Assembly: GCA_043823195.1 (NCBI GenBank)
Contig: JBDRAZ010000103.1
Coordinates: forward strand, 42,038 to 106,037
Length of the DNA: 64,000 bases
From: an archaeon
GTDB taxonomy: Archaea > Nanobdellota > Nanobdellia > Woesearchaeales > JBDRAZ01
Direction: 5' to 3'
Notes under the pieces: model-generated
The model's input: the letters and a program-made list of their open reading frames with translations, nothing else
Database searches by the model: none
What the model was told of the DNA's origin: nothing
Program-made: the position numbers and the translations under genes
In this document: piece by piece, positions 3,845 to 40,616 of the stretch
Layout: each line of letters begins with the position of its first letter
Numbering within the stretch: the first letter of the stretch is position 1

Positions 3845-5227
3845 CTACGCCCTGAAATTATCCGGGATGTGCAGCCCCTTGCCTATTGTCACAAGGCCGT
3901 CAGGGTCAACATTGACGTGGACACCATCTTGATAGCCAATACCTTCGAATGCCTGGATCCGTCTCTCGTACCGGAGTCCGTTTGCTGGAGTTATCGAGAC
4001 GCCGTGTCCAATTCTGACATTCTTGTCTGTTATTACATTCTCGAGAGTTACGCCCCTTCCGATATACTGGACAGGTCTGATCGGGCCATTGGGTCCCACT
4101 TCATTCCTGTCAGCTCCGTTCAGGATGCTTCTCTTGATGACGGTCGGGTGGTCCGCATCGGTGTCTTCAGTGAACACCTGGTAGCCCAGGACAGAAAACT
4201 CTACGGTGACGTTTTCTCCTATCATTGTGCCCGGGCTCTTCATGCTCCTTATTAGGGTTCCGTATACCTGCATATCGGACAGTTGCCTCGCTCTGGAAGT
4301 TATCAGGCCTGCATGAAATACCTCCTCACCAAATGCCCTGTCCTCCAGGGCCCGCATATGCAGCCCGTGATACGCGTGGCGTTCCCCGATATCGCACCAG
4401 ACTCCATCAAAAGGGACAGCATAAAGCCTGTGAGTCTTAATCATTTTGGGGATTACATGTTTTCCGAAATCAGTATAGCCATCTAAAAATGCGTACTCTC
4501 TTAGCGGCTCCTTCATGAATAGGTATACGCCCATTGACCCAAGAAAGACCCTGCCATCCCTTTCTATCCCCATAGAATCCTTCATCTCATCGGTGAGCAC
4601 CAGTCTCTCCAGCTCCTCTTCGGTCTGCGGCTTCTCGACGAATTTGATGATCCTGCCGCTTTTGTTCACCCGCATAATGCCGAATCGTTTCGCATCTTCC
4701 TCGCCCACAGGGTAGACGAATATGGCACCATGTGCAGGCCTGGAACTTGTGCTATGGCGGTTTATGCCGTCGATGAGTTGCCTGTAGTTTGCGCGGTATA
4801 CGTGATCGGTTGTCGCTACCAGTACGGCTGTGTGGCCGCGGTCGAAGATATAGTCCCATTTTTGCGTGAGGGGCCGGACAGTACCGCTCCATGCTTCAAT
4901 TTTGTCAGATTCATTTGTCTGGACAGGATACTCCATATGGAGCCTCATGTCCCGGTCACTAAAACCCCATGCCTCTCCTGTTCCCACGTGGCGGTGCAAT
5001 GAGCGGGGATTCCACTGGAGCATCAGGTAGGTGTCGGTAGCTTGGCCCTCGCCTGCTCTGTTGGTCTCTGAAATATTTGTCAGGGGGTAATCGACTAATC
5101 GGAACTTGCCCCCCACTGCCACAGCTCCCTTTGTTCGCTTTGCATATTGTGTCATAACACCCAGTCTTGTGCTTCTTCCGCCACCCAGCAATACATTGAC
5201 GACCTGGTTTATTGTGAGCTTACCCAT
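3845..5227 (-). CDS. sugar-1-phosphate adenylyltransferase, GlgC/ADP-glucose pyrophosphorylase family
   Basis: N-terminal LLGGGRSTRL..AKRTKGAVAVGGKFRLVDYPLTN matches the GlgC (G)GxGTRL..KRAKPAV.FGGK.RIIDF..SN signature. The C-terminus is a left-handed beta-helix of hexapeptide repeats. Confidence 0.6.
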   Translation of the reverse strand: MGKLTINQVVNVLLGGGRSTRLGVMTQYAKRTKGAVAVGGKFRLVDYPLTNISETNRAGEGQATDTYLMLQWNPRSLHRHVGTGEAWGFSDRDMRLHMEYPVQTNESDKIEAWSGTVRPLTQKWDYIFDRGHTAVLVATTDHVYRANYRQLIDGINRHSTSSRPAHGAIFVYPVGEEDAKRFGIMRVNKSGRIIKFVEKPQTEEELERLVLTDEMKDSMGIERDGRVFLGSMGVYLFMKEPLREYAFLDGYTDFGKHVIPKMIKTHRLYAVPFDGVWCDIGERHAYHGLHMRALEDRAFGEEVFHAGLITSRARQLSDMQVYGTLIRSMKSPGTMIGENVTVEFSVLGYQVFTEDTDADHPTVIKRSILNGADRNEVGPNGPIRPVQYIGRGVTLENVITDKNVRIGHGVSITPANGLRYERRIQAFEGIGYQDGVHVNVDPDGLVTIGKGLHIPDNFRA

Positions 5228-5367
5228 CCGTGAACAAAAGTGACCTCATTATTTAAATGTTACTATTTTACGGTGGTAGTTAACTATCTTTTTATGCTAA
5301 ATGTCCGGCATATCGCGAACCGCAAAACTTATTAGAGACTTCCAAAACACATGCGGAGGGTGGTAAG

Positions 5368-6522
5368 ATGTTGTCTACAAAACTGAGTCAGATTGAGCCC
5401 AGTGCAACGCTGGCAATTACTGCAAAGGCAAAGCAGATGAAAAAAGAGGGCAAGGATGTCGTTGCCTTCGGTGCAGGCGAGCCGGACTTTGACACCCCAG
5501 ATAACATCAAGCAGGCTGCAATAAAGGCCATCAATGACGGCTTTACCAAGTATACTCCTGCAAGCGGCATAAACGAGCTGAAGGACGCGATTGTCGAAAA
5601 ATTCCGTAAAGACAACGGGATTGAATACAGGCGTGAGAACGTGATGGTGTCCTGCGGCGCAAAGCACATCCTCTATAACGCAACCCTGGCAACTGTAAAC
5701 GAAGGTGACGAAGTAATTCTGCCAAGCCCCTACTGGGTAACCTTTATTGAGCAGATCAGGCTTGCCGGCGGAAAGCCAGTGGTTGTTGACACCGGTTCAG
5801 GCTTCAAGTTCACGGCAGCGATGTTCAAGAAGCACGTGACAGGCAGGACAAAGCTACTGATATTCAACTCCCCGAACAACCCCACGGGCGCGATTGTTGA
5901 CCGCGATGAGCTGGAAAAGATTGCCAAAATCGCCGTGGAAAACAAGATCTATGTCATTTCAGACGAGTGCTATGAGAAGCTCATATATGATGGCAACGAG
6001 CACGTCAGCATTGCATCGCTCAACAACAGCATAAGGGAGCTGACTATCACGGTGAATGCAGTGTCAAAGGCGTATTCAATGACAGGCTGGCGCATTGGCT
6101 ACTGTGCTGGGCCCGTCGACCTGATAAAGGGCATGGGGGGCCTGCAGGACCACTGCACAAGCAATCCAACGTCAATTGCCCAGATGGCTGCTCTCGAGGC
6201 ACTGACCGGTCCGCAGGATTCAGTCGGGGTAATGGCAAAGGCATTTGATGAGCGGAGAAAATACATGGTCATGCGCCTTAACCGGATGAAGGGCATAACA
6301 TGCAACACGCCCGAGGGCGCATTCTATGCATTTCCCGATGTAAGCGCAACAGGCCTTTCCTCAGCCGAGTTCTGCGCAAGACTCCTGGAGCAGGAGCTTG
6401 TTGCGGCTGTGCCGGGCGCCGCCTTCGGCGATGACAAATGCATACGCCTGAGCTATGCGACCTCCATGAAGGAGATTGGGCGCGGCATGGATCGGATGGA
6501 GAAATTTGCCGCAAATCTTTAA
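5368..6522 (+). CDS. aspartate/aromatic aminotransferase (class I)
   Basis: Motifs GAGEPDFDTP, NSPNNPTGA and SKAYSMTGWRIGY. A GGAGGGTGG ribosome-binding site lies 6 nt upstream. Confidence 0.75.
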   Translation: MLSTKLSQIEPSATLAITAKAKQMKKEGKDVVAFGAGEPDFDTPDNIKQAAIKAINDGFTKYTPASGINELKDAIVEKFRKDNGIEYRRENVMVSCGAKHILYNATLATVNEGDEVILPSPYWVTFIEQIRLAGGKPVVVDTGSGFKFTAAMFKKHVTGRTKLLIFNSPNNPTGAIVDRDELEKIAKIAVENKIYVISDECYEKLIYDGNEHVSIASLNNSIRELTITVNAVSKAYSMTGWRIGYCAGPVDLIKGMGGLQDHCTSNPTSIAQMAALEALTGPQDSVGVMAKAFDERRKYMVMRLNRMKGITCNTPEGAFYAFPDVSATGLSSAEFCARLLEQELVAAVPGAAFGDDKCIRLSYATSMKEIGRGMDRMEKFAANL

Positions 6523-31951: not shown

Positions 31952-32015
31952 TTGAAAATTGCGCAGGGCCTAAAACCCCGCACTTTCGGAAATTGCTCCG
32001 GGCGGCGGGTTTTTG
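31952..32015 (+). repeat. copy B of the recurrent GC-hairpin/U-tract element (ttgaaaattgcgcagggcctaaaaccccgcactttcgg..ccgggcggcgggtttttg)
   Basis: AAAACCCCGC..GCGGCGGGTTTTT inverted repeat. Lies between the TATA box and the start codon. Confidence 0.5.
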
Positions 32016-32039
32016 TCATGTGAGTTCCTCGCCGAAAAA

Positions 32040-33128
32040 ATGAAATCCTGCCTAAAATTAATGCCTTACGTTATGGGGTATCGCCTTTCCAGGCTATCAC
32101 TCCTGCAAACACCGCTGCCTGTAAACATTACTCTCTCGCTGACAAACAGATGCAATTCAAAATGCAAAACCTGCAATATCTGGAAGTGCCCGCAGGTTGA
32201 AGAGCCAACCCTGGATGAGCTGGAAATGATATTGAGGTCACTGGGTACCGTGCCTTTCTGGTTCACACTTACAGGCGGCGAGCCCTTTCTGAGGGGCGAT
32301 CTCGCGGATATCGTGGGGCTCATATGCACAATAAGCAGGCCGGCCATTATCGCCATACCGAGCAATGCATCACTCCCTGGCGCCATTGAGCGAACAGCGC
32401 GGAAAATGCTGGGCATCTGCAAAAAGAATGGTGTTCATTTGGTGATAAACCTCTCCCTGGACAACATAGCGGGCAAGCACGACCGGTTAAGGGGCCATCC
32501 GGGCAGCTTTGACAGGTTTAATGATACGTTCCGGAGGCTGGCCGGCCTGCGGTCCGACTACAAAAACTTTACTCTGGGAATTAATACCGTGATCTCGCGG
32601 TATAACGCAGACGATTTCTTTTCGATCTATAGGTATGTGAATCACATTAGCCCCGACAGCTACATAGTTGAGCCCGCCCAGGAGAGAAAGGAATACATGA
32701 ATCTTGGAGACAACCCGCTCCCTGATATGCAAAAGTATGCAGGCATCATAGGGTTTCTCCGGAAAAATCCGCAGCATCGCAGGAATAATGTGCATGGCAT
32801 GAATAATATATATTCGCTCCTGGTCAATGTGCTGAGGAGAAGATACTACATAGCGACATTGCCTCAGCCAGGGAAAAAGCAGGCCGTCCCCTGTTATGCG
32901 GGAAGGGCATCGATGTACATATCAGGCCGGGCAGACGTCTGTCCCTGTTCGGTATTATGCGAATCCCTGGGAAACCTTAAACGCCGGAAGTATGATTTTA
33001 AGGGGATCTGGCGTGGTGAAAAAGCAGACAGGTTACGAAATGCAATTAAACAGCGGAAATGTGCCTGCACCCAGGCAAATGTCAGCTACACGAATCTAAT
33101 GTGCGGGTGGCCGGTTTGGCAGGTTTAA
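32040..33128 (+). CDS. radical SAM enzyme with SPASM-type C-terminal domain (subfamily distinct from the six paralogs)
   Basis: LTNRCNSKCKTCNIWK, TGGEPF, C-terminal VPCYAG..GRADVCPCS..KCACT. The ORF track starts at TTG 32013; ATG 32040 is preferred because the hairpin/U-tract ends at ~32015. Confidence 0.65.
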   Translation: MKSCLKLMPYVMGYRLSRLSLLQTPLPVNITLSLTNRCNSKCKTCNIWKCPQVEEPTLDELEMILRSLGTVPFWFTLTGGEPFLRGDLADIVGLICTISRPAIIAIPSNASLPGAIERTARKMLGICKKNGVHLVINLSLDNIAGKHDRLRGHPGSFDRFNDTFRRLAGLRSDYKNFTLGINTVISRYNADDFFSIYRYVNHISPDSYIVEPAQERKEYMNLGDNPLPDMQKYAGIIGFLRKNPQHRRNNVHGMNNIYSLLVNVLRRRYYIATLPQPGKKQAVPCYAGRASMYISGRADVCPCSVLCESLGNLKRRKYDFKGIWRGEKADRLRNAIKQRKCACTQANVSYTNLMCGWPVWQV

Positions 33129-33129
33129 A

Positions 33130-34197
33130 TTGAAACAGCTGGATGTCCTTGAAACCCTTCTTGCCAAAAAGGGGCGGTATTCGGTCTTTCTAGATTTCTA
33201 TGGTGTCCGGGCCAGGCTGGAGAGCGATAACCGGGGGATAATTGATTCAATGGAGTTTCACTTCAGATATTTTGTTGCTGATGAAGCAGCGGACCATGAG
33301 ATAACAATCAGGATTTTTCATGAAAAAATAGATTACTCGGTGCTGCCGTACGCTGAAGCCTCATCTCACGCTCCGCATTCATTTTCCTATGACCTCAGAC
33401 AATACAGGATTGTTGATTATTTTGGCAGGGCACTGGCAATTTATAATTATGATACCGACACGGGCGCAATATTCTTTGCCGACTCAGAGTTTGAAGATGA
33501 AACCACATATCTGCTGGTCATGTCAAGAGTCGGGGAATTTCTCGACAGGAAGAAAATTCACCGGATTCATGCACTGGGCGTTTCCTGCAAAGGCAGCGGG
33601 GTGGTTTGCGTTCTGCCTCAGGGCGGTGGGAAGACAACCCTGGCACTTGATCTGCTTAAGGAAAGGGATATTCAGCTGCTGTCAGAAGACACGCCGCTGA
33701 TAAACAAAAAGCTGAAACTGCTGCCCTTTCCGATACGGATGGGCATCAGGATGGAAGATGTAAAGAGGTCAGGAATAGGAACCGGGCATCTTAAGGAATT
33801 TCGCCGTGCATATCATCCTGACAAATACGTGCTGGATTTAACTGCCAGCAGGGAAAAAATATCAAGGCCCTGCAGTGCCAGGGTCCTTATCGTGGGCAAG
33901 CGCGTTCTGGGCGACAAGTCAATAATCGTGCCGGTCAATAAAGCAAGGCTTTTCATGCCCTTATTGAAGACGGTAGTCTTTGGCCTTGGGCTTCCCCAGG
34001 TAGTGGAATACTTCTTGCGCGGGAATCCTGTTTGCGTTATGAAAAACATCAGGATCGCATCGCTGAGATTAATGCTGGCAGTTAAGCTGTTATTGAGGTG
34101 CGATACCTACATCTTCTTCCTGGGTCAAGACACCGGCAAAAATGCCCGGACATTGAAAAAGGCATGCAGGCGGTTAACGCGGAAGGCGTCTTCATGA
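33130..34197 (+). CDS. HPr-kinase-like P-loop protein (HprK-related kinase); TTG start 1 nt after the rSAM stop
   Basis: RIHALGVSCKGSGVVCVLPQGGGKTTLALDLLKERDIQLLSEDTPLI matches the HprK C-domain pattern (H.s.V..G.GVL..G.SG.GKS..AL.L...G..LV.DD). Confidence 0.55.
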   Translation: MKQLDVLETLLAKKGRYSVFLDFYGVRARLESDNRGIIDSMEFHFRYFVADEAADHEITIRIFHEKIDYSVLPYAEASSHAPHSFSYDLRQYRIVDYFGRALAIYNYDTDTGAIFFADSEFEDETTYLLVMSRVGEFLDRKKIHRIHALGVSCKGSGVVCVLPQGGGKTTLALDLLKERDIQLLSEDTPLINKKLKLLPFPIRMGIRMEDVKRSGIGTGHLKEFRRAYHPDKYVLDLTASREKISRPCSARVLIVGKRVLGDKSIIVPVNKARLFMPLLKTVVFGLGLPQVVEYFLRGNPVCVMKNIRIASLRLMLAVKLLLRCDTYIFFLGQDTGKNARTLKKACRRLTRKASS

Positions 34198-34631
34198 TGA
34201 TTAAGATTGATATAAGGGATCAGTATCGGGCAGATATCTATGGGTTTGGAGAGATATACGAGATTGTATCCGTAAACTACCTGTTGCAGAAGCTTAGGGC
34301 GCGATACGCCGGGGGGGACCTTTACCTGTTTGACGGATCTGATGTGCGTTACACCGGCCTGAGGGATTATCTGATTATGGGGGAAATCCCCTTTGAAGAG
34401 GGGACTGCGGACCGTCCCCCCTGGAAACCCAAAACGAGGACGCATCAGAGGCCCGTCACAGCCTATCCTGCTGTCCGGGATCTGGCAGCCCTTGCATTCC
34501 GTTTATTGGTCAGGCTTGAGTTTTTGTGGTCGCAGGCCCATTTGAGGTATGTCTTTACAGCTATGCCCGTTGCATATATGCCGGTTGCAGATGTGCCTGT
34601 TGCAGATATGCCTGTGCGCGGGTTAAGCTGA
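34193..34631 (+). CDS. hypothetical 146-aa protein with C-terminal pentapeptide repeats (MPVAY/MPVAD/VPVAD/MPV); start ATG overlaps the kinase stop (ATGATGA)
   Basis: Start/stop overlap indicates translational coupling. The C-terminus is encoded by four tandem 15-nt repeats. Confidence 0.4.
34563..34622 (+). repeat. 4 x 15-nt tandem direct repeats (atgcccgttgcatat / atgccggttgcagat / gtgcctgttgcagat / atgcctgtgcgcggg)
   Basis: Read directly. In frame at the 3' end of the 146-aa ORF. Confidence 0.7.
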
Positions 34632-34661
34632 TCCGGGGTCCGGCTGATCCCGTATCTTGTT

Positions 34662-34740
34662 TCCGGGCGGCTCAGGATGGTTACAAAGCGCCGGGTCTAA
34701 AACCCCGCACTTCAGTGCAGGGATGAGCGGCGGGTTTTTG
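34662..34740. terminator. copy C of the recurrent element, acting as a bidirectional intrinsic terminator between convergent genes
   Basis: CTAAAACCCCGCAC..agtgcaggg..GCGGCGGGTTTTTG: GC stem flanked by an A-run and a T-run, located between the stops at 34631 and 34712. Confidence 0.45.
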
Positions 34741-35803
34741 CGATAAGCTGGTGCTTGATTCTCTCATTCTCCACATGCACTACAGCACAGCACTGTCTGC
34801 AGTAATGCGGCAGGTCCCCCGCAAGGAGCCTTTTTCGTATTGTGCCAAATGCCCTGCCATCCCATATGTCACGGAGTGACCTGCCGTTCAGGTTGTCCCC
34901 TCCGTGGCCTCCTGACATGCTGCACGGCCCGACCGATCCGTCAGGAAGAATTATCATATTGTACCATGGCTCAAAGCAGGGGGCATTGAGGAACGGGTTC
35001 TTCTCGCAGCTGCCTTTTTTTTTGATTAGCTCATCCATGCTCTCTGATGCGTTCTCAACGATCTGCCCATCAAGAAATGACAACACGTTGGTATATGTCC
35101 CATGCTTCTCTGCGATTTCAGCAGCTTTCTTGATGTGCCTGGGCAGCAATGAGCGTTCGTCCGGACTGAGTTCCAGTTCCCTGCCCTCTCTTCCCCAGAC
35201 AGTCATGGGCTGAAACTGGATGTCGCTGCATTTCAGCCTATTGGCCAGTTCCGCCATCTCAGCAATCCTGTTATAGTTCCTGTTGCTGATTACGGTATTG
35301 ATCCGCAGCACCGGCAGCCGGGCCCCTGTCTCCTTCTTGAGCTGATTCAGGGCCTCAATGTTCCTGATTATCTTATTAAACGTCCCGTCCCTGCCCCTCA
35401 GATAATCGTTTACTTCGGGGTCAGGCCCGTCTATGCTCACAGTTACTACGTCCCATTTGCTATCTACCAGAAGGGGTATTGCCGAATCCAGCAGGGTTCC
35501 GTTTGTTATCAGGAGCCCATGCATTCCCTCGCTCTTGATCTGCCCGATTGCCTCCCTGATTCCCTCTGAGAGCAAAGGCTCGCCGCTGCCCGGAATCCTT
35601 ATCTCCTTTACGCCAAGCCGGGACGCCTCGCTAATGACAGATGCAATCCTGCCCCGGTCCAGCTCTGCAGGTTCAGGTTCATGCTCCCTGAGCCAGCAGC
35701 TCCGGCATTTCAGGTTGCACCTGTTAGTGGGGTTAAGCTCTATTGTCACCGGTCCTGCGCTTCCACCTTCTGCCCATCTGCTGAGCCTCTCGATCTTATC
35801 CAT
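34712..35803 (-). CDS. radical SAM enzyme with SPASM/twitch-type C-terminal domain
   Basis: IERLSRWAEGGS..TNRCNLKCRSCWLR, GSGEPL, ITNGTLL, APCFEPW..GSVGPC..CRQCC. Confidence 0.75.
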   Translation of the reverse strand: MDKIERLSRWAEGGSAGPVTIELNPTNRCNLKCRSCWLREHEPEPAELDRGRIASVISEASRLGVKEIRIPGSGEPLLSEGIREAIGQIKSEGMHGLLITNGTLLDSAIPLLVDSKWDVVTVSIDGPDPEVNDYLRGRDGTFNKIIRNIEALNQLKKETGARLPVLRINTVISNRNYNRIAEMAELANRLKCSDIQFQPMTVWGREGRELELSPDERSLLPRHIKKAAEIAEKHGTYTNVLSFLDGQIVENASESMDELIKKKGSCEKNPFLNAPCFEPWYNMIILPDGSVGPCSMSGGHGGDNLNGRSLRDIWDGRAFGTIRKRLLAGDLPHYCRQCCAVVHVENERIKHQLIAKTRRSSLH

Positions 35804-35855
35804 GCAGCCCCCATCAATGAATTAACCATCAATAAATTAAAATAGTTGGTTCAAA

Positions 35856-35870
35856 TGCTTAATATAAATT
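35856..35870 (+). promoter_or_regulatory. TATA box (cttaatataaattag) about 30 nt upstream of ATG 35897
   Basis: AT-rich box at the canonical distance from the start codon. Confidence 0.35.
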
Positions 35871-35896
35871 AGTTGCGCTATTTTGATGATTACAAT

Positions 35897-37324
35897 ATGC
35901 GATACAAAAAAGCACTGCTGATAGTGCCCCCGACAGGGCTCTACCGCAGGGAGGACCGGTGCCAGTCGCGTGTGGACACCCAGACTGCCCGCGTTATCTT
36001 CCCGCCCATGGCCCTTGCGCACATGGCATCGTCCATGGTTAACGGGGGAGTTAAATGCCTGATCCGGGACTACGCAGCCAAAGGCGCGGGATGGTCTGAT
36101 TTCACAGATGACCTTAAGAAAACCCCTGCCGATCTTCTGATTATCAGCACCACCGGCGCAACACTGGAATCTGACCTGAAGGCAGCCCGCCTGGCAAAGA
36201 AGGCCAATCCCGGCATCCGGGTTGCAGTAATCGGGATGGCGGCAGGCCTCCGGGATTCCTGGGTTCTGGCCAGATACCCCGCAGATTTCATAATCCGCGA
36301 GTCTCCGGAATCAACAATCAGCTGGCTCATTGATGCGCCCGTCGGCAGGGTGCCCAACATATCATACCTAAAAGACGGAAAGCTGGTCAGGGCCCGGAGC
36401 CTGAAGCTGACCGGCCCCCTGGATGAACTGTTTCCGGCTGCACGCCATCTGCTCGACAACCGGCTTTACAGGGATCCGCGCACCGGAAGGATGCTCACAA
36501 TGATTGAGTGTGAGCGCGGCTGCCCGAATTCCTGCATATTCTGCACAGCGCCAATGACGCACGGGAAGATTCCCAGGTACAGGAGGCACGAGCACGTCAT
36601 ATATGAGATCAGCCAGTCGCTGAAATTGGGGATCGGGAGTTTTATCATGAACGGTGACACCTTTACGCATAACCCCGGCTGGGTGATGGGGCTGTGCAGG
36701 AAAATTGCACCCCTCGGGATTGAGTGGGCCTGCAACAGCCGCGTTGATGCGCTTAATCTCCGGATGCTCAGGGCCATGAAGGATTCCGGCTGCTATCTCA
36801 TTGGGTTTGGCATAGAAAGCGGAAACCAGCAGATCCTGCGGAAGATCCGCAAAGGGACCACTGTTAATGCAATCAGGAGAGCAATTGCCCTCTGCAGGCA
36901 GGCGGGGATAAGGGTGCATACCTTTTCTGTGATAGGCTTTCCCTGGGACACTGAAAAAACAATCTACGATACCTACCGGCTGATCAGGCAGGCGGATCCG
37001 GATTATTTTGACATCAATCTCGCAACTCCGCTGCCGGGATCGGAATATTACGCCATTGCCTGCCGCGAGGGCCTGGTAAAAAAACTGACCTATGACTACG
37101 CCCGGGCGTCTGTCTCCACTTTCAGCCTCAGCGCGCCCAGGCTGGAAAGACTCAGGGCCCGGATTCTCATGCGGCTGTATGCCCGGCCGGGTTATGTAAT
37201 CAGGACCCTTTTGCGGGCCAGGTCAGCAGCTGAACTGAAACGCCTTTTCTGGTCAGGTGCCAGACGAATAGAACATCTGCTGTCCGGCAGCTTATTTTTG
37301 CTTTGCGCGCAGGTCACTCTCTGA
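35897..37324 (+). CDS. B12-binding (class B) radical SAM enzyme
   Basis: MRYKKALLIVPP..(B12 domain)..ECERGCPNSCIFCTAP..FIMNGDTF..SRVD..FGIESGNQ. The ORF track starts 24 nt earlier at 35873. Confidence 0.7.
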   Translation: MRYKKALLIVPPTGLYRREDRCQSRVDTQTARVIFPPMALAHMASSMVNGGVKCLIRDYAAKGAGWSDFTDDLKKTPADLLIISTTGATLESDLKAARLAKKANPGIRVAVIGMAAGLRDSWVLARYPADFIIRESPESTISWLIDAPVGRVPNISYLKDGKLVRARSLKLTGPLDELFPAARHLLDNRLYRDPRTGRMLTMIECERGCPNSCIFCTAPMTHGKIPRYRRHEHVIYEISQSLKLGIGSFIMNGDTFTHNPGWVMGLCRKIAPLGIEWACNSRVDALNLRMLRAMKDSGCYLIGFGIESGNQQILRKIRKGTTVNAIRRAIALCRQAGIRVHTFSVIGFPWDTEKTIYDTYRLIRQADPDYFDINLATPLPGSEYYAIACREGLVKKLTYDYARASVSTFSLSAPRLERLRARILMRLYARPGYVIRTLLRARSAAELKRLFWSGARRIEHLLSGSLFLLCAQVTL

Positions 37325-38116
37325 ATGCACATGCCTCTCCTTTTCTGAGCTGATGTGGCCGCACAGGAGTCCCTTTTCGGCCAGGTGCGGAAAAACGTCG
37401 CCTTCGAGTGTGGCGCCATCCAGGTTGAATATGTCGGCATCAGCTGCAAATATCGGCGAGAACACCAGATAGTGGTCAGACATCCTTGGCTTCTGCACAA
37501 AGCTAAGGATGCGGCTCCCCTCCATCCTTACCGTCCCTTTTTCAGAAGGCGTAGCAGACGTTGTGAGCATCAGGGTGGCGACGGCGCTGTTTCTCATGTG
37601 GTCATTCCACAACTCTTCAATGTTGATGTTGTTGAATACAATATCCCCGTAAACGACCAGGAAATTGCCGCCAATCCTGCCCTTCAGCAGCCTGAGTGAA
37701 TTTGCGGTGCCGAGTGACTGGGTTTCCTCAACATACTCCATGTCAACGCCGTGCTGAGAGCCGTTTTTCAGTATCTCAAAAATCCGCGTCAGGATCCTCT
37801 CTCTTGCGACAACAAATACCTTGCGGAAGCCGTCTTCCCTCAGCTTCCTGACCGCGAGCTCTGCAACGCTGATCCCACTGATCTTTGCAGCAGGGCTGTA
37901 CAGGCCATCGGAGATCATCATCCGCTCTTCAGGTCCGCCGGCCAGAATGGCAGCAATCTTGTTCTTTCCCAGCGAATTCCGTATCAGGTGTTCCATTGCC
38001 TGGCTCCTGTTCCTTATGAAGATGTAATCAACTATTGAATCAATCTCATCGAGAGTTTCGCTGTTGATGGTTATGGATATTTTTTTCTTCATTCTAAAGC
38101 GGCGGTGCCGGTGCAT
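37292..38116 (-). CDS. sugar-phosphate nucleotidyltransferase with N-terminal ribbon-helix-helix (CopG-like) domain
   Basis: N-terminal KKISITINSETLDEIDSIVDYIFIRNRSQAMEHLIRNSL has an RHH beta-alpha-alpha pattern. Then AAILAGGPEERM..VVYGDIVF resembles the NTP_transferase G-x-G-x-R core. The 3' end overlaps 35897..37324 by 33 nt (convergent). Confidence 0.5.
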   Translation of the reverse strand: MHRHRRFRMKKKISITINSETLDEIDSIVDYIFIRNRSQAMEHLIRNSLGKNKIAAILAGGPEERMMISDGLYSPAAKISGISVAELAVRKLREDGFRKVFVVARERILTRIFEILKNGSQHGVDMEYVEETQSLGTANSLRLLKGRIGGNFLVVYGDIVFNNINIEELWNDHMRNSAVATLMLTTSATPSEKGTVRMEGSRILSFVQKPRMSDHYLVFSPIFAADADIFNLDGATLEGDVFPHLAEKGLLCGHISSEKERHVHSESDLRAKQK

Positions 38117-38355
38117 AAGGTCTCATCTTCTGGCATGCCGGCGGGTCCGCCAATCAGGAACGCACGCGCCATGCCCCGACTGGGCAGGATTGGTGTGCGC
38201 CCGTCGGATATCTGTTGCTTATCCCGGGATGTCCTACTTATTTATATAACTATCGGATAAAGTATGATGGAGGTAAGATATTTTAAAGGGTATCTTTTTG
38301 TAGCTGATTATGCAGGAAATTCATTTGCATAATGCCTTGCTAAACGGGTGATTGA

Positions 38356-39657
38356 ATGAACATCGCAGTAATTGGAACCGGATATGTCGGCCTGACTGTC
38401 GGCGCATGCCTTGCAAACCTCGGCAACGACGTGATATGCGCCGATAAGGCGAAGGAGAAGATTGAAAACCTCAAAAAAGGCGTGCTCCCTATCTACGAGC
38501 CCGGACTGAAGGAGATTGTGGACCGGAACGCAGCAGAGGGCAGGCTCAGCTTCACCACTGATGCAGCCTCAGCCGTGAGTACCTCGGATGTCATATATAT
38601 TGCTGTCGGAACCCCTTCGGGTGAAGATGGCTCAGTGGACCTGTCCCAGGTCAGGGATGCGGCGCAATGCATTGGCCGGAACATGCATTCCTGCAAGATT
38701 GTTGTGGTCAAGAGCACTGTTCCTGTCGGCACATCCGGAAAAATCAGGGAGATCATCAGGGACAATCAGGCAGAGCCATATGACTTTGACATGGTGTCAA
38801 ACCCGGAGTTCCTGCGTGAGGGTTTTGCAATACAGGATTTTACCAGTCCCGACAGGATAGTGGTGGGGGCAGACAATGACGGGGCCAGGGAGACCATGGT
38901 TTCGATATACAAGGCAATAGAGCGGACAGGCAAGCCGATTTTGTTCACAGACATAAACAGCTCTGAGATGATCAAGTACGCGAGCAACGCGTTTCTTGCA
39001 ACAAAAATATCCTTCATCAATGAGATCGCAGGGCTCTGCGAGATTGCCGGCGCGGATATCAAGATGGTTGCAAGGGGAATGGGGCTTGATACCAGGATAG
39101 GCCCGAGGTTTCTCCAGGCAGGGGCCGGCTATGGGGGGAGCTGCTTTCCGAAAGATGTTAAGGCGCTTATTGCGACCGGCAGGGATAACGGGCTGAAGCT
39201 GTCAATACTTGAGGCTGTGGAAGATGTCAACCGCAGCCAGCGCAGGGTTATACTGGAAAAGGTGAAACGCTTGCTGCCGGATCTCAAAGAAAAAAAGATC
39301 GCCGTCTGGGGTCTTGCATTCAAGCCAAATACCGACGACATCAGGGAAGCCCCGGCAATTGAGATCATCCAGGAACTTCAGAAAGAGGGGGCGGCCATCC
39401 ATGCCTTTGATCCTGCCGCAGTTGAGACCTCAAGGGAGGTAATTCCTGACGCAGTGTTCCACAGGAAGGCCCTCGATGCGGTCAGGGGGGCTGACCTGCT
39501 CCTCATAATGACTGAGTGGGACGAGTTCCGCGAGCTTAACTTGAAGAAGCTCAGGGCCCTGATGGGCTCTCCCAACATTGTGGATGCAAGGAACATCTAT
39601 GAGCCGAAGGACATGTGCAGCCTTGGCATTAATTATGCCGGGGTGGGCCGGAAATGA
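38356..39657 (+). CDS. ugd: UDP-glucose 6-dehydrogenase
   Basis: [30 protein letters not shown].., catalytic GGSCFPKD, 433 aa. Confidence 0.8.
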
Positions 39658-40616
39658 GAATCCTGGTCACCGGTGGGGCAGGCTTTCTTGGAAGCCACCT
39701 GTGCGATTATCTCCTGGCCAGAGGCCACAGCGTAATCTGCATGGACAACTACATTACCGGGAAGAGGGACAACATCGGCCACCTTCTCGGAAAAGAGGGC
39801 TTTGCCGTTAGTGAGCACGATGTTACTAAGTATATCCGCCTGGAGGGCAGGCTTGATGCGATCCTGCATTTTGCGTCCCCTGCGTCCCCCATCGACTATC
39901 AGCAGATACCCATCAAGACGCTTAAGGTTGGCAGCCTCGGCACCCATAATGCCCTGGGCCTGGCCCTTGCCAAAAAGGCCAGGTTCCTGCTGGCCAGCAC
40001 ATCTGAGGTTTACGGCGATCCGAAGGTTCATCCGCAGCCCGAGACATACTGGGGCCACGTAAATCCTGTGGGCCCGAGGGGCTGCTATGATGAGGCCAAG
40101 CGCTTTGCAGAGGCAATTACAATGGCATACCATCGCGCGCACAAGGTCGACACCAGGATTGTCAGGATATTCAACACATACGGCCCGAGGATGAGGGCAT
40201 CAGACGGAAGGGTCGTCCCGACCTTCATCAGCCAGGCGCTCAGGAACGAGCCCATCACTGTGTTTGGCGATGGGTCACAGACAAGAAGCTTCTGCTACGT
40301 CGCCGATCTGATCGAAGGCATATACCGGCTGCTTGAGTCCCGGCCTGAACGTGGGCCCGGCAATGAGCCTGATGTTCACGACCCGGTGAACATAGGCAAT
40401 CCGCACGAGATGACTGTCCGGGGGTTTGCAGAGAAGGTGATTGCATTGACCGGCAGCAGCAGCAGGATCGTGCAAAAGCCGCTTCCCATAGATGATCCGC
40501 TGGTAAGGCAGCCGGATATATCGCGCGCAAGGAAGCTGCTGGGCTGGGAGCCAAGGGTTTCCCTGGAAGAGGGCCTTAGCCATACCATATCGTTCTTCCG
40601 GGACAATAACCTTTAA
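39654..40616 (+). CDS. UDP-glucuronate decarboxylase (UDP-xylose synthase) family SDR
   Basis: [18 protein letters not shown].., YDEAKR, about 320 aa, directly downstream of ugd with a 4-nt overlap. Confidence 0.7.

Follow-up and report, generated by a model that had tools for sequence, protein, structure and literature searches.

A ribbon-helix-helix protein with a remodelled nucleotidyltransferase fold as the proposed regulator of a divergent UDP-glucose dehydrogenase operon in DPANN archaea

A 64-kb stretch of a Woesearchaeales contig (JBDRAZ010000103.1 of assembly GCA_043823195.1; hereafter the window) carries a gene whose product joins a ribbon-helix-helix (RHH) domain at its N-terminus to a sugar-1-phosphate nucleotidyltransferase fold, and this gene is divergently oriented to a UDP-glucose 6-dehydrogenase operon. 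Based on sequence comparisons, the product is rather likely to be a ligand-controlled one-component regulator of the divergent operon and of its own gene. The proposal is carried by a conserved NikR-like RHH domain, by a near-invariant block of phased direct repeats between the two genes, and by a C-terminal domain in which the fold was kept and the catalytic signature was replaced. Metabolite-coupled autoregulation of the glycan island had been suggested in a first-pass annotation made from the letters alone. Of this, nucleotide-sugar-linked transcriptional control including autoregulation was retained, given the divergent synteny and the repeat element, whereas control of the whole island was dropped, as only the divergent operon and the promoter of the regulator itself are linked to the protein by the evidence and the motif occurs once in the window. 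Coordinates of all features are collected in Table 1, and residue numbers refer to the 266-aa form of the protein throughout.

Judged by family profiles, the N-terminus is a genuine NikR-like RHH domain, unambiguously so at the family level. A profile built from 48 diverse family N-termini matched E. coli NikR (1q5v) over its RHH domain (residues 1-45) at an E-value of 3.5e-12 and P. horikoshii NikR at 1.5e-7, with RHH antitoxins and CopG matched too, and 44 of the 48 N-termini individually matched RHH_1 at E <= 10 (best E 1.6e-9). The window N-terminus searched alone against Pfam stayed sub-threshold (RHH_1, E 0.018, 15.5 bits vs. a cutoff of 20.5; RHH_8, E 0.017), and the NikR models of NCBIfam gave only a weak match to residues 11-54 (E ~2e-3), far under their cutoffs; hence, annotation pipelines miss the domain. 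The search with RHH/CopG models (PF01402) that had been recommended in the first-pass annotation was thus negative for the window sequence by itself and positive for the family. A monomer model computed with AlphaFold2 from 128 diverse sequences reached a predicted local distance difference test score (pLDDT) of 96 and a predicted template modelling score of 0.87 (pLDDT was 59 with 23 close homologues as input) and showed an extended strand (residues 1-10; beta-strand K4-I-S6-I-T8-I), helix 1 (11-20), and helix 2 (29-44, with an NRS cap at 28-30), followed by a Rossmann-like domain. Among the 119 members of the close clade, K4, S6, T8, R27, N28, and S30 are invariant, and R29 is kept in 118. 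In the profile alignment, the N28/R29/S30 cap aligns with NNRSE of NikR, and K4, S6, and T8 fall on NikR R3, T5, and T7, which are reportedly the base-contacting strand residues in the NikR-DNA structure 2HZV.

The open reading frame (ORF) at 37292..38116 on the minus strand is real, with the start probably shifted. From its first ATG (38116) it encodes 274 aa, including eight extra residues (MHRHRRFR) that no homologue has. The second ATG (38092; MKKKISITIN) is shared by more than 119 close homologues, relatives of about 265 aa beginning with MKKKISIT or MxKxKISIT, and by a 266-aa NCBI protein (P0001; 100% identical, annotated "sugar phosphate nucleotidyltransferase [archaeon]"). Based on these starts, 38092 is most likely the true start. 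It is hardly credible that the real start lies downstream of the RHH segment and that the N-terminal extension is an untranslated product of annotation: neither ATG of the window is preceded by a clear Shine-Dalgarno sequence, which speaks for such an artefact, but the N-terminal 45 residues are among the best conserved of the protein at the amino-acid level, in the 119 close homologues as well as in more than 120 distant cluster representatives, and the gene of the relatives looks leaderless, with its ATG at a fixed distance from the TATA box. A start behind the RHH segment, named in the first-pass annotation as one finding that would overturn its reading, is effectively refuted by the N-terminal conservation, and the fusion it had described is conserved rather than an annotation artefact.

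Between the divergent genes, a block of ~31 bp (TTTAAATATCTTACCnTTATCCTACTTTAT) was found with a mean pairwise identity of 0.889 across 64 intergenic regions, vs. 0.36 and 0.31 on either side; its information content approaches 2 bits per position at loci whose proteins are only 52-65% identical. It opens with a TATA box, after which TTATC(C/T)TAC(C/T) occurs three times in direct repeat with hexamers (TCYTAC) that start 11 and 10 bp apart, and its consensus in Woesearchaeota is TATTTAAATATCTTACCATTATCCTACTTTATCCTACC. The element was present at 72-74 of 80 genome loci. Its 23-nt core has a single occurrence in the window, where chance predicts 0, and is likewise single-copy at each related locus, always just upstream of the regulator. 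In the window, two divergent TATA boxes enclose the hexamers, which follow one another at intervals of one helical turn. A TATA-rich segment that had been pointed out in the 38117-38355 spacer is real and corresponds to TATA box 2 plus part of repeat 3. The palindromic operator expected there was not found: self-complementarity is absent from the conserved block, and the candidate operator is made up of three phased direct repeats; inverted repeats do occur in one distant subfamily (L094).

The arrangement of the promoters relative to this block was compared across loci. The distance from the anchor of the element to the dehydrogenase ATG is 28-31 nt in most loci, placing the TATA centre at ~-25, so the dehydrogenase mRNA is predicted to be leaderless in most of them. 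In group 1 loci, the regulator ATG lies 27-45 nt past the anchor, and a single palindromic TATTTAAATA could fire both ways. In group 2 loci, the regulator ATG is fixed at 62-63 nt past the anchor, and a second TATA box follows directly after repeat 3. The window belongs to group 2, with a regulator leader ~100 nt longer than in relatives; both of its divergent genes have longer leaders than their relatives, that of the regulator being GC-rich and ~100-130 nt long (GC content of the window, 51.8%). As the group 2 repeats are upstream of both TATA boxes, i.e., untranscribed, and outside the basal elements except for two transcription factor B recognition elements (BREs), they are predicted to be a protein-binding site. 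A structured leader or riboswitch between TATA box 2 and the start codon (38222..38085) was considered and rejected (fold z-score -0.54, no Rfam match); the only Rfam match was a chance one to CRISPR-DR31 (E 0.12) inside the dehydrogenase gene. Past TATA box 2, the leader contains GATATCCGAC and GGGATAAG (38210..38201 and 38228..38218, minus strand), which resemble repeat 3 (TTATCCGATA) and its complement and could be extra weak half-sites or chance occurrences.

It is improbable, though worth weighing, that the RHH-like N-terminus binds no DNA, or not this DNA, the protein being an enzyme or metabolic accessory with the RHH as a dimerisation module only and the block being a bidirectional basal promoter (BRE, TATA box, and initiator) or the site of another factor. 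The block does include a TATA box, and the BRE predicted for the dehydrogenase promoter shares sequence with repeat 1, so that the conservation could partly reflect the basal promoter. However, ~22 bp outside the TATA box and its neighbouring predicted BRE are conserved as well, and the layout with two TATA boxes puts them upstream of both promoters, a position in which basal elements would not be expected. The invariance of the strand residues aligned to NikR R3, T5, and T7, which are presumably base contacts, also argues against this alternative.

For a view independent of the regulator gene, public metagenome contigs were scanned with ATCTTACCNTTATCCTAC, which yielded at least 120 loci. Among the matches listed, 62 instances were informative, i.e., had TATA context and room on both sides. 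Regulator and dehydrogenase both flank the motif in 52 of these and the regulator only in another 4, so that element and regulator occur together in 56, which speaks against the alternative just described. In 5 instances, the element stays by the dehydrogenase without an adjacent regulator, as a basal promoter or a foreign binding site would, and in 1 neither gene is adjacent. Elements without an adjacent regulator, like the relocated regulators described below, are compatible with action in trans and also with another factor binding the element. Motif matches away from the regulator were further considered as a wider regulon and rejected, since all were without TATA context and were duplicates, 11-bp satellite arrays, or chance 17-mers, the latter being expected at that database size. 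One such contig (L207, 1..4941) is almost entirely 11-bp satellite, with 445 copies of TATCCTACCAT, the unit of which equals the operator repeat and has the same 11-bp period; L113, L118, L156, and L210 are likewise 11-bp satellite contigs, L210 mixing in other simple satellites. This suggests eukaryote-type satellite DNA and a coincidental match, striking as the likeness is.

Distant subfamilies were used to compare the RHH strand with the upstream sequence. A member with the strand KVSISV (P0173, L093), divergent from RmlC, has TATCCTACTTTTTCCTAC, i.e., TCCTAC twice, 10 bp apart. A member from Micrarchaeota with RVSFFI (P0145, L091), divergent from an epimerase-DegT-AglB cluster, has a TATA box and GTATTAC/TTATTAC/GTATTAC at 10/11 bp, and one with RVSLTI (P0163, L094), with glycan genes a few kb downstream, has two inverted repeats of TATTAC-N5-GTAATA. 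In Diapherotrites, a member with a canonical loop and the strand RVTITI (P0229, L089), divergent from phosphoglucomutase, has a TATA box and TCATAC twice, 10 bp apart. For the R-x-S member P0146 (L216, strand RISLTL), which is divergent from a UDP-sugar dehydrogenase, TATTAC was forecast before the sequence was read and was then found: TTTTAAATA is followed by three copies of TATTAC at 11/10 bp, ending at the ATG. K-x-S strands thus pair with TCCTAC/TCTTAC (window clade, P0173), R-x-S with TATTAC, and R-V-T-I-T-I with TCATAC. The E. coli NikR operator is GTATGA-N16-TCATAC (PMC7055735), and the hexamer of the P0229 element equals its half-site TCATAC, the strand of E. coli NikR being RVTITL. 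Across the subfamilies compared, the hexamer sequence tracks the first of the predicted DNA-reading residues of the RHH strand. That the hexamers change with the strand in independent subfamilies, and that a NikR-like strand goes with the NikR half-site, again argues against a protein that does not read this DNA.

Synteny was evaluated at 70 loci with at least 1.5 kb of upstream DNA. The divergent dehydrogenase lies within 450 bp of the regulator at 57 of them, and several further loci have one additional gene in between (e.g., L056). In the window, the dehydrogenase scored 469 bits against an NDP-sugar (nucleoside diphosphate sugar) dehydrogenase model (cutoff 189.8). The usual operon of relatives consists of the dehydrogenase, a canonical nucleotidyltransferase of 245 aa, and an epimerase/decarboxylase resembling UDP-glucuronate decarboxylase (UXS). 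The canonical 245-aa enzyme (GYGTRL..PKP, EEKP, WYDIGT) is inside the target operon at 49 loci. The window operon is without this small enzyme and continues after 40616 with a DegT aminotransferase, another epimerase, and a flippase. In a few genomes (L008, L053), the regulator gene was relocated; the upstream element is missing there, so the regulator would act in trans. The relocated gene at L053 is directly behind a 200-aa gene (5383..5985). In one woesearchaeotal relative (L004, 3737..5692), the UXS-like epimerase has 651 aa, with two Epimerase segments flanking a faint LAGLIDADG match, which suggests an intein.

The C-terminal domain belongs to the nucleotidyltransferase fold, as had been assumed in the first-pass annotation: residues 55-231 matched NTP_transferase (PF00483) at E 1.1e-16 (61.6 bits vs. 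a cutoff of 21.2), and Foldseek returned VTC1, the GMPPB/GMPPA complex (7d72, 7d74), and RmlA at E-values of 1e-17 to 5e-19 and a TM-score of ~0.7. No NCBIfam enzyme equivalog came near its cutoff, the best being Arch_glmU with 60 bits vs. 292. The clade of 119 sequences was then compared with 49 canonical 245-aa operon nucleotidyltransferases by hhalign (probability 96%), column frequencies, and alignment to PDB 3hl3. In the window protein, GGPEERM...YSPAAK stands in place of the canonical GxGTR...PK. Across the clade, G-x-G-T-R-L has become G-G-x-E-E-x-L, the second Gly being E or D in 117 of the 119 and the Thr mostly E, and the position of the signature Arg is occupied by H (56), R (34), N (15), or K (6). 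P-K-P has become Y-R-P (R replaces the Lys in 107 sequences and S does so in 12, the window protein among them), E-K-P has become Q-K-P (Q200 invariant, K201 retained), and W-x-D-I-G has become an invariant E-x-H-x-H, with H254 for the Asp. Kept in the clade, invariant or nearly so, are the GTA motif (G128), the GD aspartate (D150), and K201; G128 and D150 are almost invariant across the whole family. A survey of 128 family representatives (<= 50% identity) found a strict GxG[TS][RK] in 5 and, by eye, a canonical loop in about a dozen, the others being degenerate or having the loop deleted. The replacement of the W-x-D-x-G segment is part of an invariant C-terminal (G)H-L-S-S-E-K-E-x-H-x-H (residues 246-256; 37325..37357), the two histidines and two glutamates of which could form a metal or ligand site.

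As the fold, the GTA motif, and the GD aspartate were kept and the phosphate-handling signature was lost, the domain is predicted to be a non-catalytic ligand module, probably a nucleotide- or NDP-sugar-binding sensor rather than a working synthase. The first-pass annotation had spoken of a nucleotide-sugar-forming enzyme, a description that does not hold up given the replaced signature and the separate canonical enzyme in the target operon of most relatives. A bifunctional enzyme-regulator of the PutA/BirA/NadR type, in which nucleotidyl transfer is kept and DNA binding is set by substrate or product occupancy, is the most serious alternative, although we consider it unlikely. In characterised enzymes of the fold such as RmlA and GlmU, the NTP phosphates are handled by the very residues that are replaced in the clade. 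Two acidic residues stand in for the signature Gly and Thr, the position of the signature Arg is not conserved, the loop is often deleted outright in the wider family, and the missing equivalog match points the same way. On the other hand, the full canonical GxGTRLxPxTxxxPKP loop is combined with an RHH in P0143, P0156, P0167, P0176, P0185, and P0229; because this minority of members keeps both, the ancestral state was probably an enzyme with an RHH. The window operon is without a separate canonical 245-aa enzyme, D150, K201, and the GTA motif are kept, and an RHH fused to an active enzyme has a precedent in PutA (PMC5293562).

Several observations weigh against the reading of the window protein as a purely ligand-controlled regulator. 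The pocket of the clade is strongly conserved (E55, Q200, K201, E250, K251, E252, H254, H256), i.e., under strong purifying selection, and a modified catalytic activity is therefore possible. The signature Arg is present in the window protein (R57), and most relatives bear an Arg at the position of the PK lysine. To these are added, on the side of DNA recognition, the overlap of repeat 1 with the BRE, the 5 dehydrogenase-linked elements without an adjacent regulator, and the relocated regulator genes of L008 and L053. The comparison of hexamers and strands covers only a handful of subfamilies: P0278 (L215; strand RLTITL, in an AT-rich, bacterial-type context) has only TCATTA/TCATAA-like words upstream, and no convincing phased hexamers were found in the upstream regions of L088, L090, and L092. 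Some distant members are also found outside sugar contexts.

A mechanism that would fit the regulator reading is as follows. The RHH domain would dimerise, as RHH domains do, and each dimer would read one of the hexamers TCTTAC, TCATAC, and TCCGAT, all from a single face of the DNA and in the manner of NikR dimers at GTATGA, with the C-terminal domains supplying higher-order contacts. The ligand of the C-terminal domain would be a nucleotide sugar or its precursor (such as UDP-glucose, UDP-glucuronate, or UDP-xylose), which the domain would bind but not synthesise, and ligand occupancy would alter DNA affinity or oligomer geometry and thereby set transcription of the operon and of the regulator. 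Repression, via occlusion of TFB/TBP or RNA polymerase, appears about twice as likely as activation, since the promoters are near-consensus, the repeats abut or overlap both BREs, and in group 1 they cover positions -22..+1 of the regulator promoter. End-product co-repression, following a NikR-like logic, and induction by a precursor would both be possible. We infer DNA binding and its stoichiometry, the ligand, the loss of catalysis, and whether regulation is negative or positive. A wider proposal, more tentative than the one for the window gene, is a hitherto unrecognised DPANN-wide family of nucleotide-sugar-sensing transcription factors that would have arisen from a bifunctional ancestor through repeated decay of the loop, would read DNA by a K-x-S/TCCTAC, R-x-S/TATTAC, and R-x-T/TCATAC code (the last being common to NikR), and in its window-type form would act, in Woesearchaeota and their relatives, as a dedicated feedback regulator for the supply of UDP-glucuronate/UDP-xylose-type precursors of cell-surface glycans.

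An exhaustive search of 1.84 billion cluster representatives yielded 644 matches at E <= 1e-10. Among the best 150 of these, almost every one aligns from query residue 1-3, and ~124 bear the RHH motif, so that the survey of the fusion in other archaea proposed earlier uncovered a large family, most of it in DPANN archaea. Members with a named source belong to Woesearchaeota, Nanoarchaeota, Diapherotrites, and Micrarchaeota. Proteins of the close clade, which share 52-65% identity with that of the window, are encoded in at least 110 GTDB species representatives, all of them metagenome-assembled genomes of the Woesearchaeota/Nanoarchaeia type. Two distant members have bacterial-type neighbours (trigger factor and ClpP at L093, EF-P at L215), and the family may extend into ultra-small bacteria. 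Database labels of members are hypothetical proteins, nucleotidyltransferases, and, in one case, AglF; precomputed Pfam domains list RHH_1 plus NTP_transferase in only a few of them. One homologue (P0005, 302 aa) has an internal tandem duplication of ~36 residues (...GTADSL.LLKGKI..NFIVVYGDIIFSKINI... twice), either real or an assembly artefact. No description of the fusion, its operator, or its role was found in the openly searchable literature (subscription-only papers were outside reach). That an RHH can be combined with an enzyme or ligand domain is already known in principle; what appears to be new is this sensor fold, together with the operator and the distribution in DPANN archaea.

To our knowledge, almost nothing has been established about gene regulation in uncultivated DPANN archaea such as Woesearchaeota, and we know of no regulator-operator-ligand system characterised in the group. 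If the proposal is true, the regulator and its likely operator, ~31 bp conserved across more than 60 species-level genomes, form a concrete, testable pair and one of very few that can be defined in these regulator-poor archaea. Control would be exerted at the step leading into surface-glycan precursors derived from UDP-glucuronate. The protein would exemplify how an enzyme fold can become a sensor and be joined to an RHH, with the intact-loop members possibly marking the ancestral bifunctional state, and the link between strand and hexamer, anchored on the known NikR site, would help to predict other RHH sites if it holds. Metabolic reconstructions that count the gene as a UDP-sugar pyrophosphorylase (one relative bears the label AglF) may be wrong.

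Table 1. Features of the regulator gene, the intergenic region, and the divergent operon in the window
Feature	Coordinates	Strand	Basis or remark
Regulator gene, 266 aa + stop	37292..38092	-	Likely ATG at 38092; homologue starts and NCBI P0001
NikR-like RHH DNA-binding domain, residues 1-44	37961..38092	-	Family profile, RHH_1 matches, AlphaFold2 topology
Sugar-1-phosphate nucleotidyltransferase-fold domain, residues ~45-257, proposed ligand-sensing module	37322..37960	-	PF00483, Foldseek, AlphaFold2 pLDDT 96
Degenerate signature loop GGPEERMMISDGLYSPAAK, residues 52-70, replacing GxGTRLxPxTxxxPK	37883..37939	-	3hl3 alignment, family loop survey, hhalign
Convergent overlap, 33 nt	37292..37324	.	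3' end of regulator vs. B12-binding radical SAM ORF 35873..37324 (+)
Whole element, TATA box 1 to TATA box 2	38287..38239	-	
TATA box 1 TTTAAAATA	38279..38287	-	Read on the + strand: predicted promoter of dehydrogenase operon
Candidate operator, repeats TATCTTACC / ATCATAC / TTATCCGATA	38251..38280	-	Cross-species conservation, unique in the window
Hexamers TCTTAC; TCATAC; TCCGAT	38278..38273; 38267..38262; 38257..38252	-	
TATA box 2 TTATATAAATA	38239..38249	-	Predicted promoter of regulator gene; includes the TATA-rich segment of the first-pass annotation
GGTGAT, Shine-Dalgarno of dehydrogenase	38347..38352	+	
UDP-glucose 6-dehydrogenase-family gene, first of divergent operon	38356..39657	+	Three UDPG_MGDP_dh domains
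Short-chain dehydrogenase/epimerase (UDP-glucuronate decarboxylase/UXS-like), second operon gene	39654..40616	+	Homologues with 53-70% identity in the same operon at most loci

On the other side of the regulator, the convergent overlap with the B12-binding radical S-adenosylmethionine (SAM) ORF described in the first-pass annotation is right as ORF geometry. This ORF is one of three radical SAM genes within 32013..37324, next to a plain one (32013..33128) and a SPASM-type one (34712..35803, minus strand), and a 355-aa ORF without a Pfam match (33130..34197) is located amid them. A second nucleotidyltransferase of the window (3848..5245, minus strand; 466 aa) is ~33 kb away, looks canonical, and consists of NTP_transferase and a GlgC-type left-handed beta-helix.

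Among known systems, NikR shares the homologous N-terminal RHH (1q5v, 2hzv, 2bj1) and the order of an RHH followed by a C-terminal domain that binds a ligand and oligomerises. The C-terminus of NikR is a tetrameric nickel-binding domain, in contrast to the nucleotidyltransferase fold here, so the protein is not a NikR; the NikR half-sites are 16 bp apart, whereas those found here are mostly direct repeats 10-11 bp apart, and the metal ligand of NikR contrasts with a predicted nucleotide or sugar and an archaeal BRE/TATA promoter. Arc, MetJ, CopG, and omega place several RHH dimers on adjacent sites about one helical turn apart, the co-repressor of MetJ being SAM. The site spacing is alike in the present system, but these repressors of bacteria, phages, or plasmids are small, stand alone, and have no sensor domain of this kind. 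With RmlA, GalU/AglF, and ManC/VTC1 (PF00483), the C-terminal domain shares the fold, Pfam membership, the GTA motif, the GD aspartate, and the (E/Q)KP lysine; unlike in these enzymes, GxGTR...PK and the WxDxG aspartate are replaced, an RHH is added, and no equivalog cutoff is reached. GMPPA, a paralogue of GDP-mannose pyrophosphorylase without catalytic activity, senses the NDP-sugar product by binding it and so provides feedback (PMC11228364). Its fold (7d72, 7d74) is that of the C-terminal domain described here, in which the signature is degenerate and for which NDP-sugar sensing is proposed by analogy; GMPPA, however, is eukaryotic, has no DNA-binding domain, and acts allosterically by binding active GMPPB. 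PutA, which acts from the divergent putA-putP control region, is by analogy the best precedent for the idea of the first-pass annotation, and NadR and BirA are further enzyme-regulator precedents. Trifunctional PutA carries an RHH fused to proline dehydrogenase/P5C dehydrogenase and is an autogenous regulator (PMC5293562). Both proteins have an N-terminal RHH on a metabolic enzyme fold, and here, too, the gene is located at a divergent promoter with repeated sites. The likeness is one of analogy and not of membership, since only NTP_transferase and neither of the two PutA dehydrogenase domains was detected; PutA is catalytically active, its switch being a redox-driven association with the membrane, whereas the protein described here has a degenerate signature and, presumably, a ligand switch.

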